Source: Podarcis vaucheri (taxonomy: Eukaryota). Taken from it: a stretch of 64,000 nt of DNA. The DNA lies in the NCBI GenBank assembly GCA_965113315.1, contig OZ220367.1. The stretch is one strand, 5' to 3'. The position numbers and the translations under genes are program-made. Below are positions 12,469 to 44,172 of this stretch, one piece after another (within the stretch, counting starts at the first letter, position 1; each line of letters opens with the position of its first letter). Under the pieces are notes generated by a model. The model worked only from the letters and a program-made list of their open reading frames with translations. It ran no database searches and was not told the DNA's origin.

Positions 12469-13518
12469 TATATGCAACTCAAACCTACAGTAGCCAAATA
12501 AACTAGGTAGTTTGGGATTTATTTTTTTCAGACCAAGACCAAAGAAGTTAGCTCAGTGCTAATTTGTTTGATCATATTCTTTAAATTTAATTTATATTCT
12601 CACTATTGGAGGGTTCAAGTAAAGTCATCCATTTTCTTAGTAACTTTGCATATAACTATGTTTGTGATTTTACTAATTTGACACTGCCTGAGACCTTGCT
12701 GTTATAAATGGCAAGAATGTTCTCCAGTCTTCATGGAGAAATGTCAAACTTTTCATGTTGTCATGAGAATAATCCAAACTAATGCAGAGCTTGGAAACAA
12801 ATAATTATCTGACAACATGAAACAGAATTAACATGCACTAGAGCATGTCATGAACATTTCCTTCAGCAAACAAGCAAGGTAATTGCTGTCGGAGTACAAA
12901 GCAGGAAAAAAAGGGTTTTGTTCTCTTCTATATGACAATTTGGGGGGAGCACTGTTTATTTGCTTAACCCATCAGAACATGCTTCCTCAAAATGGTGCCA
13001 TTCAAGGACTGATGGAGTGAGACAAGCTTCCGGATTGCAGACACGTCTCATTTCACACTTCCTAGGTCTGATCAAACAGAATGTTCTTGCCCTGTTATTA
13101 CTAGCCTCAAAGCTGGCAGGTGCGAATGTTTAAGCAGGACAGTTCTATCACAGGTTCATGCTGATCAGTCATTAATTCCACAAATTTATCTCGGAAAGAG
13201 TTTGCCCTCATATCTGCACAGCCCTGCTGAAAACCACACTGCGTAAAAAGTTTTCTGATGAATTTGGTAAGAGTATAAGAAGTGATTAGTAGCTTATTGG
13301 CTTGCAGTTTGATGTTTATTGTTTCAGTGATTTGTTGTGATCGGGGTCACCGAAGATGAAGCAACGTATAAATTTTCAAAATAAGTAACAGTCCTGCTAG
13401 ATCGAACCAAAGGTCTTCCAGGAAGTACACAACTGGGCAGGGAAGCAACCATCTTCGTCAATTGTATACCCCTAGTCTCTGATACTCACAGATATACTGC
13501 ATGTCACCATGGAGACTA

Positions 13519-13609
13519 AATAAAAAAATTCCTTCCAGTAGCACCTTAAAGACCAACTAAGTTAGTTCTTGGTATGAGCTTTCGTGTGCATGCACACTTC
13601 TTCAGATAC
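13519..13609 (-). mobile_element. Very short Penelope-like element insertion carrying a hammerhead ribozyme
   Basis: Near-identical to 33530-33619 of the Penelope copy; flanked by 13-bp direct repeat accatggagacta (13506-13518 and 13608-13620). Confidence 0.85.
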
Positions 13610-13610
13610 C
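13571..13610 (-). ncRNA. Minimal type I hammerhead ribozyme
   Basis: Minus strand GGUAU-CUGAAGA-A-GUGUGCAUGCACAC-GAAA-GC-UC^AUACC: stem I GGUAU/AUACC, CUGANGA and GAAA cores, palindromic stem II, vestigial stem III. Confidence 0.82.
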
Positions 13611-14143
13611 ATGGAGACTATTCCACTGTATCTATTCTTCAGAGGGAGAGTACCATCACTTATGTAGCCAGCATCATACCACCTGTGCACCAGAGGGGGA
13701 GGTATCAGCATACCTAGGGAAACCATGAGATTTGCAGAAGTGCAAAAGAAAAAAAATATACAACCCACCTCTAAGGTGTAATGAGGACATATATATATGG
13801 CAGTGAGCTGCTGGCTGACTGTTGCAGATGGACAAATCTTTCAGTGCTGGTGTATCTCACTTACAATTTTTTCCCCATTTTGAGTTCGGTTAACTAGATT
13901 TCAACATTGGTTGGTGATTGTTATTTTTGTATAAAAATTTGTCAGCATTTCTCCAAATATGTACATTTTGGGATGCGTTTTTGCAGAATACGTGAATTTT
14001 TGCAAGTGGTTTTCCCCATAATGCATTTAGCGGACTGCCATGGGTGTCCATTGTGTATTGCTTTTTAAACTTGTCTGTTATTTCTTGTGCTATTTTGAAA
14101 CTGTTTCATTATATTTTGTATATCACCCTGAGTTCTTAACTTT

Positions 14144-14716
14144 AATAGGCGTATAGCATCTAGATCAAGGGAAGTAATAGTGCCACTGTATTCTGCTCTG
14201 GTCAGACCTCACCTGGAGTACTGTGTCCAGTTCTGGGCACCACAGTTCAAGAAGGACACTGACAAACTGGAACGTGTCCAGAGGAGGGCAACCAAAATGG
14301 TCAAAGGCCTGGAAACGATGCCTTATGAGGAACGGCTAAGGGAGCTGGGCATGTTTAGCCTGGAGAAGAGGAGGTTAAGGGATGATATGATAGCCATGTT
14401 CAAATATATAAAAGGATGTCATATAGAGGAGGGAGAAAGGTTGTTTTCTGCTGCTCCAGAGAAGCGGACACGGAGCAATGGATCCAAACTACAAGAAAGA
14501 AGATTCCACCTAAACATTAGGAAGAACTTCCTGACAGTAAGAGCTGTTCGACAGTGGAATTTGCTGCCAAGGAGTGTGTTGGAGTCTCCTTCTTTGGAGG
14601 TCTTTAAGCAGAGGCTTGACAACCATATGTCAGGAATGCTCTGATGGTGTTTCCTGCTTGGCAGGGGGTTGGACTCGATGGCCCTTGTGGTCTCTTCCAA
14701 CTCTATGATTCTATGA
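14144..14716 (+). mobile_element. Young CR1 LINE, 5'-truncated (ORF2 C-terminus and 3'UTR)
   Basis: Uninterrupted [19 protein letters not shown]...[15 protein letters not shown]1 ORF2 end; tail ttctatga repeats. Confidence 0.95.
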
Positions 14717-15827
14717 GTCTTATGTGGAAGACAATAACAATATTTTTTGTACACTTTTCACTAATATAGGTGTTTTTATGCAGACTTCTCCATAATATTC
14801 ACATCATTGTACATAATTTCTTGCAGTACAAAATTTGAAAAAGTGTGAATTAGAGGATAGGTGCATTATTTCTATATTGTTTCAGGAATGTGAATTGTGC
14901 AGATTTGCATTAAGGTGCCAAACAAACAAAATTTCTTCTCTATCCCTACTAATTTATTAGTATTTCAATCCCATCTTTACTTGATCCAAAGTGAACAAGC
15001 ACAAAACATTCATTGGTGTCCAAAGCTACCATCTCCTCCTTTTCTCCTCTGAAAGGCCCCAAGCAACTTCCCTGGGCAGGAGGAGGTGGAGTTGATAGCA
15101 ACCCCCCCCCCCCAAGACCTGCTGGTGAAGGGTGAGTAATAAAGATAAAAATTAAAAATATAATAAAGATGATGGTGGTGATGATACTACACAGTTACTT
15201 GTTTACTAAAAAAAAACTCTGAAAATATTTAGTTTTGATAATATTGCCCATCATTTTGATAGTTTTGATAATATTGCCCATCATTCCAGGAAGGCATCCA
15301 TTTAAAATAGCCATGTGCTATATCGAAATCCTGGCTAAAACACAGCTTTAGGAATCCTGTAGGCACTAAAGCTAGCATAGATGACTAGCTTTTATTTGAT
15401 CCCTTGCTTCTAAAAGTTTCTTTTGTTTGATCCCTTGCTTCTAAAATATCTTCACATTATAGGTACAGAACCTGTGAAGTAAAAGACTTGAAAGTCCGAA
15501 AGATGATGAAAAGATTAGCAGCCAGAACAAATGCATGTTTACTCAAATGTAAGTCCCTGCAGAGTTCAGTGGGCCTTACTTCCTGGCAAGCATGCCTAGG
15601 ATTGCAGCCTTAAACCATGAAATGATAAAAAGAATTAGATGAGGAATGACATGAATGGTTTTTAGAACAATTCATGCCATGAGCTTTACTGAGACTACCG
15701 AAACTATTCAAAGTACAATCTTATTTTAAAATTGAAAAAAGAAATCCAAACGTATTAAGAGAATGTTATTTAACTGTATTAGAAGTCTATTGAAATTAAT
15801 GTCAAGAAACTATTAGCATGTCAGGGT

Positions 15828-29640: not shown

Positions 29641-29776
29641 CAGTGATGGCCAAACTTGGCCCTCCAGCTGTTTTGGGACTACAACTCCCATCATCCCTAG
29701 CTGACAGGACCAGTGGTCAGGGATGATGGGAATTATAGTCCCAAAACAGCTGGAGGGCTGAGTTTGGCTATCACTG
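29641..29776. mobile_element. Palindromic hAT MITE nested in an older related element (~29615-29872)
   Basis: TIR CAGTGATGGCCAAACT / AGTTTGGCTATCACTG; near-complete fold-back; TSD gactaaag/gactacaa (6/8). Confidence 0.82.
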
Positions 29777-30518: not shown

Positions 30519-33493
30519 GTGATTTTAGTATTTTAAAACAGTAAGCTTTATAAGCTTTATAAATGGATGCTTGCTCATTTCTGAGTCCTGGATTCTACCC
30601 CCCTGCCAGCCTACATACATTTGCAGAATAAAAAAGTTACTTTCTCATAGAGCTTTGTATAGAACAGTAGGGAACAGTACCAATGAGGCATAGAAATTTA
30701 ATAGAAGTCAATAAGCAAAAGATGTGAAATTCAAACTCAATATTAAAATAATCTAACAAACCATAAACAGCCAAATTACCTCTTGGCATGAATCAATTAT
30801 CACTGAGTCCATTGAATTATTTTGCAGAAGTCGCAACAAAAAGCCTTCTATTTTCTGCTTGGAAAAATATTGCCATCAGTGGTTTGTCATGGGAAAATGA
30901 AAACTTGCAATGAAAATTCTGGTACTATATTGAGAAATGGAAACATTTCAGTTTGGATCAACATTCCTTCACGGCAGTGAAATGAACTGTTCAGAATAAT
31001 GCCGCCGCCATACTTTTCAGAGTTATTTTTAATTCAGAAAGATTTAATTTTGCTTAGGTGGCTGTCAAGTTCAAAATTCATAGAAGATCATTGTCATGGC
31101 AAGTTTATCTTAAAGCTAAAAGGCAAACTAAAACTATCATTCTTAAAAGGTAAATCAAAACCTGTGGGGAAATTACATCTGTCTTAACCCCCCAGCATTC
31201 TGTTAGCCAATTTGATGGAGCATCAGAGATGTCGAAGGGTGGAAAATTGAACCTGTTCTCTTCTCCCTGCACCACTGAAGTTAATAGACAATATTAAGTA
31301 TTTTCATTGGGTTTACTCTAAGTTGGCCACAACCCCAACTTACAAGTCTCTCATTGTCAGCTGATACGAAAATATGTCAGTGGAATAGCACAGCTCCTTG
31401 CATCTTTTGAATCTCCTTCAAGATGTAGCTCTGGGGATGAGGCTGCCATGGTAAGTTCCTGTGTGTCAATATTTACCGCTACACCACTGCCTTTGTCGTA
31501 AACAAAACTCCCCAATTAACATAGTTAGGGTGGGTCTATGAGTCTCCAGTCTCGAAAGCTGAAACTGCTTTCATCTGACTGGACCTTCAGAATTCAATTC
31601 CATCGTAATTGATTTGAGACATGTAACACCGGCGCGTCTTCACTGTTCATTTGCCCCAGTCCTCTGAACTATTTTGTTGCTGTTTCCTGAGTTTGTTCCT
31701 GTTGGCCAATAAAACTGAAATCATGTGGGAATCATGCGGGGACATAAAAAAGCCTGCAGGGAAGACACTTTGATTGAATTACATCTCAAAACTGAAGATA
31801 AATTCTTTCTTTGTTATACCCAAGTGCCCAGTGTCAACTCTACAGTTTGTTCATCTTCCAAATGGATATATCCCTGAAGTCTACAATCTGTTTTTCATTT
31901 CAGGTAAATAAATTCCCGTTTCCTGATGTTGTGCTTCCTGAAAGTGAAGCATATTTTTCTTGATCAAGGCACATGGGGGAAGGGTGGGTTGTGGGGTTAA
32001 AAAAAAAGAACCAAGCAAATATTACCTGGTTAGCTTTTCTACGCAGAATGAAATGTGTACCCCTAGATTTGGGCTTTAAAAACAAATGAATATAGAATGC
32101 TTTCAACTGTGAGAACTGTAAATGTAATAGAAATTTCAACTTTTGAACAGTGTAGGGTATTATTTCTTGCAGGTCTTCCATCTTAAGCGTGTATTTGAAG
32201 TTTTGTCCAGGTGTTTTCAGTGATACAATAACTTTGTGGCATGAATGGTAAGCAATGATGTTCTTGGAAGCATACACAAGTAATAATTGATCCTTAATTT
32301 CCTTCCAATTAGTTCCTTAAAAAACCATTAAGCACTCTCAAAAAAAAGGAGAAGTTTAGCCCCCTTTTCATAGAATTGCTCTTCTCAGTTGGCAGATAAG
32401 GAGGGTTATATCAGATATTGATAAATCATTTAATTTGTAAGCTGGAAGTAGCCGAATTGAAGCCAATTGATTCACAGGAAGGCAACAAAAAAACAAACCC
32501 ACAGCCTGTATTTTGCTTTCCATGTTCTGGATCTTCACTCTTGAAAATAGAACTTTGGGCTTCTTCTCTGTGGATAATAACTGTTTGCTGCATAGATCCA
32601 GGAGAACCCACCCAAAGTACATGGAGGTAATGGCTCCCCAACAGCAAATACTTCCATGGCCCTTAGAATTCTATGGTTGCCCCCACCCTCGCAAAAAAAG
32701 ATCTCCCTGACCTGCCTATGCCTTCTGTGATATCATAATTTCTAAACCAATCACAGGCAGGGGGGAATACTCTGCCCAACCCCACATGCAAACAAAGCAG
32801 ATCAGTTATTGAGCAATATGTATAGCTCATGAGCTGTGAAGTGCTAATTTTGTGTAAAGCTCTGTTTATCACTTTTCAGAAGGCTAACTTTTTACAGATT
32901 CATGGCATCAACATGCCAAAAATTGCTATTATTGTGTGGATTTATTTTCACCAGCCAAGTAAGGTTTTGTTTTCACATTGTTTTTCAGTACATGAATATT
33001 TAAGTCTATTTTGCATAGTACGTTGTGAGAAAGATGGCTGTGATGAGGTCAATGGGGATTTAGCTTTTAATTTTAACAGAAAGATGTTTTATCCCAGTAA
33101 TTTCAGTACCAGGCTTCTCAATACGCTTCTGTGGTGTTCAGCTTTGCGTTGCGATTAGTGGGCATCACCATAACAAACATTGGTATGAATGGTAATTTTA
33201 AGCCATTACTCTTGTGTGAACAAGTGAAATGAACCTCATCCTATAATAGTCCATGTTCATTGTTTTACGAGCATGATCTGCTGCTTATATCTGTAAGGCT
33301 GGCTTTATTATTTGTCAGAAATAGGCGAAATGGCCATCTTAGGAAGCAAATGGTTGGTGGGGGGGAGAGGAAATGGCAGCAAGGTGTTGGAGGACAGTGC
33401 TGTGTATCTGCTCTACACTCTATAAGGTAGCCTGCGGACCTCAGGTGCAATGGAGGATGCATTGTTGAACTAAGATGTCACTGTTGGCCCAGT

Positions 33494-34135
33494 TACAGAT
33501 AGGTAGCCGTGTTGGTCTGCCATAGTCAAAATAAAAAATTCCTTCCAGTAGCACCTTAAAGACCAACTAAGTTAGTTCTTGGTATGAGCTTTCGTGTGCA
33601 TGCACACTTCTTCAGATACACTGAAACAGAAGTTGCCAGACCCTTCTATATAGTGAGAAGGTGGGGAGGGGTATTACTCAGAAGGGTGGTGGGAATGGAA
33701 GATTGGCAGATAGCTGAGATGAGCCTGTTGACGACTCTTAACGACTGTAATAGGTCTTACAGGAAAAGGCAAGGGGTGAAGAGGTGAGAAATGGCTTAGT
33801 CATGTATAATGAGATAAGAATCCAATGTCTTTGTTCAGACCAGGTCTCTCCATGGTTTTAAGTTTGGTAATGAGTTGCAATTCAGCAGCTTCTCTTTCCA
33901 GTCTATTTCTGAAATTCCTTTGTAGTAAAACAGCTACTTTGAGATCTTGTATAGAATGTCCTGGGAGATTGAAGTGTTCTCCTACTGGTTTCTCTGTTTT
34001 GTGAATCTTGATGTCAGATTTATGTCCGTTTATTCTTTGGCGTAAGGTTTGGCCTGTTTGTCCAATATAGAGAGCTGAAGGACACTGTTGGCATTTGATG
34101 GCATACACAATGTTGGCATTTGATGGCATACACAA
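33494..34135 (-). mobile_element. Penelope-like element 3' fragment (GIY-YIG endonuclease C-terminus and pLTR with hammerhead)
   Basis: NIVYAIKCQQCPSALYIGQTGQTLRQRINGHKSDI...HF...E..LI...GLN, a PLE GIY-YIG domain; 12-bp TSD tgttggcccagt (33482-93 and 34136-47). Confidence 0.92.
33582..33619 (-). ncRNA. Minimal type I hammerhead ribozyme in the Penelope pLTR
   Basis: Minus strand GUAU-CUGAAGA-A-GUGUGCAUGCACAC-GAAA-GCUC^AUAC, identical core to 13572-13609. Confidence 0.82.
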
Positions 34136-34418
34136 TGTTGGCCCAGTCATTTAGAAATCACATGAAGTAGGGAGATCACCATCTGGTTCTTTGCTCGAGG
34201 TGGTAAAATGTCTTGAGCTGGCCCCATGTTCTTATACTTGAGATAACAGCTGTTGAAATTATCTGAAGTATGTTGCCTCAGACCAGAATCTTTGATGCTT
34301 TGAACGTTAGGACACTGACCACAAACTGTTGTGCTGTACTATTCCCTTCTTTTCCTTGGCACCAACAAAAGCAACTCAAGTCTGACCAAACCCAGTTATA
34401 CCTGAGTTCCTTGCAATG

Positions 34419-36304: not shown

Positions 36305-36944
36305 TAGAATCATAGAATCATAGAATCATAGAATCATAGAATTGGAAGAGACCACAAGGGCCATCGAGTCCAACCCCCTGCCAAGCAGGAAACACCATCA
36401 GAACACTCCTGACATATGGTTGTCAAGCCTCTGCTTAAAGACCCCCAAAGAAGGAGACTCCACCACACTCCTTGGCAGCAAATTCCACTGTCGAACAGCT
36501 CTTACTGTCAGGAAGTTCTTCCGAATGTTTAGGTGGAATCTTCTTTCTTGTAGTTTGGATCCATTGCTCCGTGTCCGCTTCTCTGGAGCAGCAGAAAACA
36601 ACCTTTCTCCCTCCTCTATGTGACATCCTTTTATATATTTGAACATGGCTATCATATCACCCCTTAACCTCCTCTTCTCTAGGCTAAACATGCCCAATTC
36701 CCTTAGCCGTTCCTCATAAGGCATCGTTTCCAGGCCTTTGACCATTTTGGTTGCCCTCCCCTGGACACGTTCCAGTTTGTCAGTGTCCTTCTTGAACTGT
36801 GGTGCCCAGAACTGGACACAGTACTCCAGGTGAGGTCTGACCAGAGCAGAATACAGTGGCACTATTACTTCCCTTGATCTAGATGCTATACTCCTATTGA
36901 TGCAGCCCAGAATTGCATTGGCTTTTTTAGCTGCCGCGTCACAC
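36305..36944 (-). mobile_element. Young CR1 LINE, 5'-truncated
   Basis: Open ORF2 end [26 protein letters not shown]...; (TAGAATCA)n tail; about 13 mismatches by eye versus the 14144 copy over ~570 bp. Confidence 0.95.
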
Positions 36945-44036: not shown

Positions 44037-44172
44037 CAGGCATAGGCAAACTTGGCCCTCCAGATGTTTTGAGACTACAATTCCCATCATCCCTGACCAC
44101 TGGTCCTGTTAGCTAGGGATGATGGGAGCTGTAGTCCCAAAACATCTGGAGGGCCAAGTTTGCCTATGCCTG
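44037..44172. mobile_element. Palindromic hAT MITE inserted into a tRNA-derived SINE (~43975-44295)
   Basis: TIR CAGGCATAGGCAAACTTGGCCCTCCAGATG, near-perfect fold-back; TSD ttctagca/ctctagca (7/8). Confidence 0.9.

Follow-up and report, generated by a model that had tools for sequence, protein, structure and literature searches.

Short hammerhead-bearing copies of a Penelope-like element in Podarcis vaucheri share a sharp 5′ edge suggestive of an RNA 5′ end

Minimal hammerhead ribozymes (min-HHRs) of metazoan Penelope-like elements (PLEs) occur mostly as single dispersed motifs, which have been ascribed to probable truncation of PLEs (Cervera and de la Peña, 2014, PMC4209133, in the sections consulted). 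In the Poseidon PLE of Anolis carolinensis (PAc), two internal start sites of reverse transcription bound the tail, both strands are nicked and extended, and uncleaved RNA is the dominant template, according to the consulted parts of Frangieh et al. (2024, PMC11167929). A tail present on only one side of inverted PLE arms has also been published (excerpts of PMC3846280 and PMC8557442). A small insert in Podarcis vaucheri, together with its relatives, bears on two questions: the way in which the inverted and tandem pLTRs of PLEs arise, and the reason for which genomes contain solo minimal hammerheads in their thousands.

The insert lies in a 64,000-nucleotide stretch of contig OZ220367.1 (assembly GCA_965113315.1), which is referred to here as the window. 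The initial annotation described it as a minimal type I hammerhead plus a short tail on the minus strand, in a pLTR-matching segment bracketed by a 13-bp direct repeat, and both descriptions hold. The target-site duplication consists of identical 13-mers, on the plus strand, at 13506–13518 on the tail (priming) side and at 13608–13620 at the 5′ junction. The PLE stub between them is 89 bp long (13519–13607, minus strand), or 91 bp with a 2-nt microhomology, as the last two repeat bases match the element. Numbering follows the sense strand of the element, with the A of TTCAGT, at 33622 on the minus strand of the window, as +1. The first base of helix I is then +4 (33619 in the copy at 33 kb and 13609 in the stub), and the predicted cut falls at +37/+38. 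The stub covers +6 to about +94, with a short-tail 3′ end in a T tract, and 13608–13610 double as microhomology, corresponding to element +4 and +5 and to a recurrent extra G. The annotated match with 33530–33619 is confirmed (98.9% identity with window 33528–33619 over 92 columns, with one T-tract indel and no difference over +6 to +82), although the 33-kb copy extends further than was stated, its tail reaching 33492 and the end of its ORF about 34135. The 3′ end of the stub uses the first of two clusters of 3′ ends, leaving out the optional 36-nt tail, and the stub has no ORF of its own. Duplications of 8–16 bp, with a mode of 12, are found in 19 of 30 comparable simple inserts. By itself, the stub is an ordinary dead PLE copy. 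The window also holds two inverted copies, 97–98% identical, of a C-terminal LINE RT fragment (14144–14720 and 36322–36898), which we take to be CR1-like, and palindromic repeats at 29667–29750 and 44063–44146 that match mir-5408 below its gathering score and are probably a MITE-like repeat.

The hammerhead occupies 13571–13609 on the minus strand, as judged from its sequence, its predicted fold and a layout like that in the consulted description of min-HHRs (PMC4209133). The 5′ strand of helix I (13609–13606) is followed by the core CUGAAGA (13605–13599), one bulged A, stem II in the form of a perfect 14-nt palindrome (13597–13584) and GAAA-GC-UC (13583–13576); the predicted cut site is 13576/13575, the 3′ strand of helix I starting at 13575. 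The conserved core (CUGANGA, GAAA and UH), stem II and an open helix I are all present. A stable helix III is absent, as had been noted, and an AGCU palindrome without a loop stands in for it, allowing a dimer. The covariance-model check did not bear the assignment out, an Rfam scan of the 64-kb window giving no hammerhead match at E≤1, and the ribozyme call therefore rests on the core consensus and the published min-HHR description. The isolated stub RNA is predicted to fold with a 6-bp helix I, to which target bases contribute two pairs; the target thus adds pairing, as the initial annotation had it, but by two pairs rather than one. Nor is the extra G that extends helix I a chance of this target: of 22 junctions known on both sides, 21 have a G immediately before helix I. 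With 40 nt of the real flank, helix I is not predicted (pair probability 0.00). A dimer pairing can be drawn on a natural tandem (L163), yet it lies about 20 kcal/mol above the free fold of that RNA. In read-through RNA (window 33530–33640, minus strand) the tail is predicted to pair with −9 to +14, burying the core, and in RNA starting at +1 to +4 with the long tail helix I is predicted to form with a probability of 0.5–0.8.

The copy at 33490–34135 (minus strand) is a longer, 5′-truncated PLE comprising the GIY-YIG end of the ORF (PF01541, E 3.3e-5), the 3′ pLTR, the hammerhead and the long tail, within its own 12-bp duplication (33482–33493 and 34136–34147). Its optional 36-nt tail (33492–33527) lies between the two 3′ end clusters. 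The initiator-like TTCAGTG (33619–33625) is the hot spot of 5′ breakpoints and doubles as a 3′ splice-site-like sequence (pyrimidine tract and CAG). The first T of a TATA-like box (33643–33652), a putative promoter element, stands 30 nt before +1, and the box is kept in eight of nine divergent older copies, in five of them as TATAA. A direct duplication of ~25 nt at the 5′ junction of this copy (window 34090–34135) is probably another re-priming event. An intact ORF of 897 aa, starting at +139 and containing PF00078 (RT) and a C-terminal PF01541 above cut-off, is found in a pLTR-ORF-pLTR locus of the C37T/T76A subfamily (L278, G000:C25:3431600-3435900; monomer of 3,018 nt). The family thus has the hallmarks of an EN+ PLE, namely an ORF with RT and GIY-YIG, a hammerhead-bearing pLTR from a partial tandem (L278), an optional tail of 30–40 nt, an inverted 5′-truncated partner and a target-site duplication, and the domain order of the ORF fits the Penelope/Poseidon clade. 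It is young, the arms differing from the window copy on average by less than one base in 77, and it is represented genome-wide by 12,924 exact matches to a 25-mer of the tail and 118 to a 24-mer of the ORF start.

Copies of this family stop at a sharp 5′ edge. In the whole genome, an exact anchor from +4 has 11,460 matches, which fall to 4,832 five bases further upstream and to 4,287 after five more; a reproducible stop at the ribozyme boundary, one of the two readings first offered for the insert, is strongly supported. The excess at the edge is 52%, or ~6,000 arms ending there. The per-base loss is 22, 10, 29, 8 and 8% at +4, +3, +2, +1 and −1, against 2.4% upstream, and the ends are estimated at ~2,510, 870, 2,320, 485 and 440, respectively, counts that are corrected for a filter pass rate of 82%, include some point mutations and are blurred at single bases by microhomology. 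Among the first 100 tail matches on contig C1, a sample from one 5-Mb stretch in which the arms of a pair are not independent, 25 end at −1 to +4, 13 at +5 to +10, 23 at +11 to +30, none at +31 to +39, 5 at +40 to +54 and 34 further upstream; nine end in the 99 nt upstream of the edge. Breakpoints scattered at random would have meant ordinary 5′ truncation, and longer copies do end at scattered positions (32 of 100 upstream of −10). The breakpoint count instead shows a 9–12-fold per-base excess at +2 and +4 genome-wide, and 25 of the 59 arms that reach +4 go no further than −1 (p ~1e-31 in a binomial comparison with the rate upstream, arms being taken as independent), which leaves random truncation next to no probability.

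Self-cleavage by the hammerhead could in principle create the 5′ terminus of the template, as the core is intact with an NUH site and a minor cluster of ends at +46 to +51 (9 of 75 jumps) lies just downstream of the cut. However, the insert includes all of the ribozyme upstream of the cut, the ends cluster 34–38 nt upstream of the cut site, and none of 100 sampled arms starts at it; among 100 listed candidates, about 5 were judged by eye to be genuine starts at +38, and ~100 copies stand against ~2,500 at +4. As the source of the main edge self-cleavage is already refuted, and as a maker of template ends it is extremely improbable. A seeming peak of 1,496 matches at the cleavage site was rejected, as it consists mostly of the C37T subfamily and not of ends at the cut. 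The minor cluster, which also holds 4 of 100 arms, coincides with a small hairpin just beyond the ribozyme. Since the ends lie off the cut site and the edge has the properties of a physical RNA terminus, the boundary is probably not due to the ribozyme; very probably the edge is a discrete RNA 5′ end.

The behaviour of the edge is best seen where the ORF is followed by pLTR sequence. Ninety loci, most of the first 100 of the 118 ORF-start matches, gave 88 distinct junction rows, a few of which may duplicate one event: 75 join the ORF directly to a pLTR piece, 12 lack a pLTR piece and one is an internal deletion. The pLTR piece begins at −2 to +4 in 47 of the 75. Jumps starting at +4 number 22, of which 19 carry a G from neither side, two a G shared with the ORF and one an A. 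An untemplated 5′ G in L1 is regarded as a possible cap signature (PMC9341517, in part). Alternatively, the extra G may have been copied when the cDNA snapped back onto its own complement of helix I; TG and TTG extensions also occur. Immediately before +2, T is found at 24 of 30 loci and in 11 of 13 jumps, so that most of these junctions have T at +1 instead of the expected A. This T may stem from slippage, from untemplated addition or from the copying of one or two bases of the partner arm; a lariat origin was discarded, the jump donors being scattered and an A being replaced in only 3 of 11. Of 150 junction loci, 23 have a direct re-copy of the 5′-terminal bases immediately upstream, and re-copies of 7–14 nt recur at L211–L240, reminiscent of telomerase-type realignment. 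Extra bases, re-copying and jumping are known from reverse transcriptases that have arrived at the end of a template. If RT instead stalled on structure in a longer RNA, or if ends were picked by microhomology at GT repeats, the long stem predicted between −9 to +14 and the tail in read-through RNA, the use of microhomology at junctions and the role of stem II as a second junction zone (23 of 100 ends at +11 to +30) would be accounted for, but the upstream sharpness of the edge and an untemplated G, which is not microhomology, would not. Moreover, both partners of +1 to +7 are copied before RT arrives and are hence no longer free to pair, and this explanation is very unlikely.

The 3′ ends of the first 100 tail matches on contig C1 form two clusters, at +90 to +97 and +126 to +134, in agreement with the pair of internal RT start sites on either side of the Anolis tail. 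[quoted passage not shown] Either arm of a pair may reach the 5′ edge, and the pairs therefore cannot be explained by one self-folding cDNA; the short arm also often holds 5′ bases absent from the long arm, and fold-back of a single cDNA was rejected. The C37T allele is concordant in 159 of 163 arm pairs, a set enriched by the searches rather than random, and rare variants are arm-specific by 84 to 6. Twin priming on the RNA of one source element fits the inverted pairs best, and from these pairs we infer two primings.

The other reading first offered for the insert was a tiny non-autonomous ribozyme family, which would have its own master copies and be mobilised in trans by the PLE protein. 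The ~6,000 arms with a common edge, the clean duplications and the tandem arrays of the exact 91-bp unit, which resemble non-LTR retrozymes, all suit such a family, whereas the alleles do not: 278 stub arms and 106 read-through arms share the common alleles, and the stubs have none of their own. In addition, both ends vary, by several bases, the commonest palindromic junction is found in unique flanks and in both arm orders, the identical edge is shared by products copied from an ORF-bearing template, and the TATA, lying upstream, is missing from the stubs. A SINE-like family would be recognised by diagnostic variants and by fixed ends that differ from those of the autonomous partner; neither is seen in the stubs, and an independent family is largely refuted and very unlikely. 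A master-copy origin was also considered for a repeated palindromic junction and dropped, because its flanks are shared and it is therefore a passenger within another repeat; a palindromic stub with shared flanks, repeated at many loci (L339, L356, L390), is apparently carried by another mobile element. Tandem arrays occur in several forms. At L163 (G000:C1:13770000-13772300), at least three 91-bp units (the extra G and +4 to +93) stand head to tail in a retrozyme-like manner, and L162 has five pLTR-derived units of ~101 bp. Other pLTR-derived tandems, at L289 and L197–L199, consist of three 315-bp units or of three ~130-bp units, the latter without the ribozyme. The two or more consecutive hammerhead units that form part of the definition of retrozymes are present at L162 and L163, and 13506–13620 has one.

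The reading that we prefer, at a probability of roughly two in three, is that reverse transcription begins inside the RNA, at the tail, and proceeds to the capped 5′ end of an mRNA, where it runs off, the edge being the transcription start. Pol II would start at the TATA/initiator within the pLTR, and the mRNA would begin with helix I of the hammerhead. The PLE protein would make staggered nicks ~12–13 nt apart and prime RT inside the RNA, at a distance of ~95 or 130 nt from the 5′ terminus. On the first pLTR of the transcript priming would be close to the RNA 5′ end, and RT would therefore run off after ~90–130 nt, as in the making of strong-stop cDNA, often adding a C that is read as the extra G. 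The cDNA end would be joined to the target by microhomology, giving this stub, or to cDNA primed on the other strand, giving inverted pairs, or would jump to more RNA, giving partial tandems and arrays of 91–101 bp, and priming on the downstream pLTR would give the long copies. Ribozyme cleavage would be unnecessary in this scheme. The start of the mRNA at the edge is suggested by the template-end behaviour (extra bases, re-copying and jumps) taken together with a TATA box at −30 and an initiator at +1. Against it, the A at +1 is a minor end, outnumbered by both +2 and +4, the T before +2 is unexplained by a cap, and the extra G may be a snap-back copy rather than a cap signature. In four RNA-seq runs, reads lie on both strands, more than 85% of them continue into unrelated sequence and ORF depth is little; no molecule starts at +1 to +4 among these passive reads, which carry no start-site information, and loose ends at +2, +4 and +5 repeat genomic junctions in other samples. 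Nor is a discrete RNA of the kind expected of a retrozyme seen in these runs, which are ill suited to showing one.

The corresponding position in the Penelope element of Drosophila virilis is the end of an intron, which stops at the 5′ end of helix I, and the start site lies ~120 nt upstream (consulted parts of PMC4209133 and PMC2377424). The RNA might likewise start further upstream in Podarcis, the edge being a 3′ splice site at which either a splicing factor sitting on the RNA or a break linked to splicing would halt or end the template, at the AG just before helix I. The sequence holds a pyrimidine tract with CAG at +2, a GTAAG donor at −138 and, near −36, a CTCAC resembling a branch point, and PLEs keep introns. 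On the other hand, a spliced upstream exon is absent from 150 junction loci and from the RNA-seq joints listed, where depth is low, the ends spread over −1 to +4 instead of sitting at +3, the branch point has no peak, and the extra G and re-copying suit a free end better; a splicing-related edge is accordingly unlikely. Run-off from the mRNA 5′ end predicts capped starts at −1 to +4, two primings in each event, of which one is long and the other short, and cleavage without a role. It can be extended, tentatively and at somewhat less than even odds, to a fuller account in which the mRNA starts at the first hammerhead base, both internal RT sites fire in each insertion, one per nicked strand, the strong-stop-like run-off cDNA is the main product, and its jumps build both the partial tandems needed for activity and the arrays of 91–101 bp, which would be newborn retrozymes.

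Several described systems share parts of this picture. As far as the consulted parts of PMC11167929 go, Anolis PAc has in common with the Podarcis element RT together with GIY-YIG at the C terminus, a hammerhead at the pLTR-ORF junction, two 3′ ends bounding the tail, the copying of uncleaved RNA and the absence of ends at the cut; in Anolis, however, the ORF starts in stem II and priming lies inside the ORF, whereas the long ORF of Podarcis starts at +139, after the tail. The same parts of that text contain no 5′ edge, start site or rule of one long and one short arm, although its Fig. S2 coverage plot may show an edge. The core, the bulge before stem II, G10.1–C11.1, the short helix I and the palindromic 15.2–16.2 are shared with the min-HHRs of PMC4209133 as excerpted, which proposes cleavage and circular templates, whereas the ends in Podarcis do not map to the cut. 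In the consulted parts of PMC3846280 and PMC8557442, EN+ PLE insertions likewise have head-to-head arms, a one-sided tail and duplications of 8–16 bp, and TATA and Inr-like motifs are noted in a rotifer pLTR; inversions are put down there to self-priming or endonuclease resolution, whereas the arms in Podarcis, which are not nested, point to two primings on RNA templates, and the edge is quantified. Non-LTR retrozymes (PMC7229834; bioRxiv 10.64898/2026.07.22.740005; both in excerpt) are, like the stub, pLTR-derived, non-coding and hammerhead-bearing, but at 13506–13620 one unit stands alone, its ribozyme is minimal, the target is duplicated and self-propagation has left no sign. In a literature search in which many papers were judged by title or the start of the abstract, none emerged that dealt with a 5′ edge of PLEs at their hammerhead or with twin priming from two sites.

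Run-off, if true, would explain why solo motifs far outnumber full elements (~12,900 tail matches against 118 of the ORF start). The thousands of young copies are a base-resolution record of PLE insertion, and the stub population is a sharp clue to that process, open to testing. Among other retroelements, minus-strand strong-stop DNA of LTR elements arises by internal priming near the 5′ end and subsequent run-off, and in L1 twin priming two primings give an inversion. The scheme proposed for the Podarcis PLE differs in that synthesis would be primed by nicked target DNA, the product would be integrated directly and both arms copy the same stretch.
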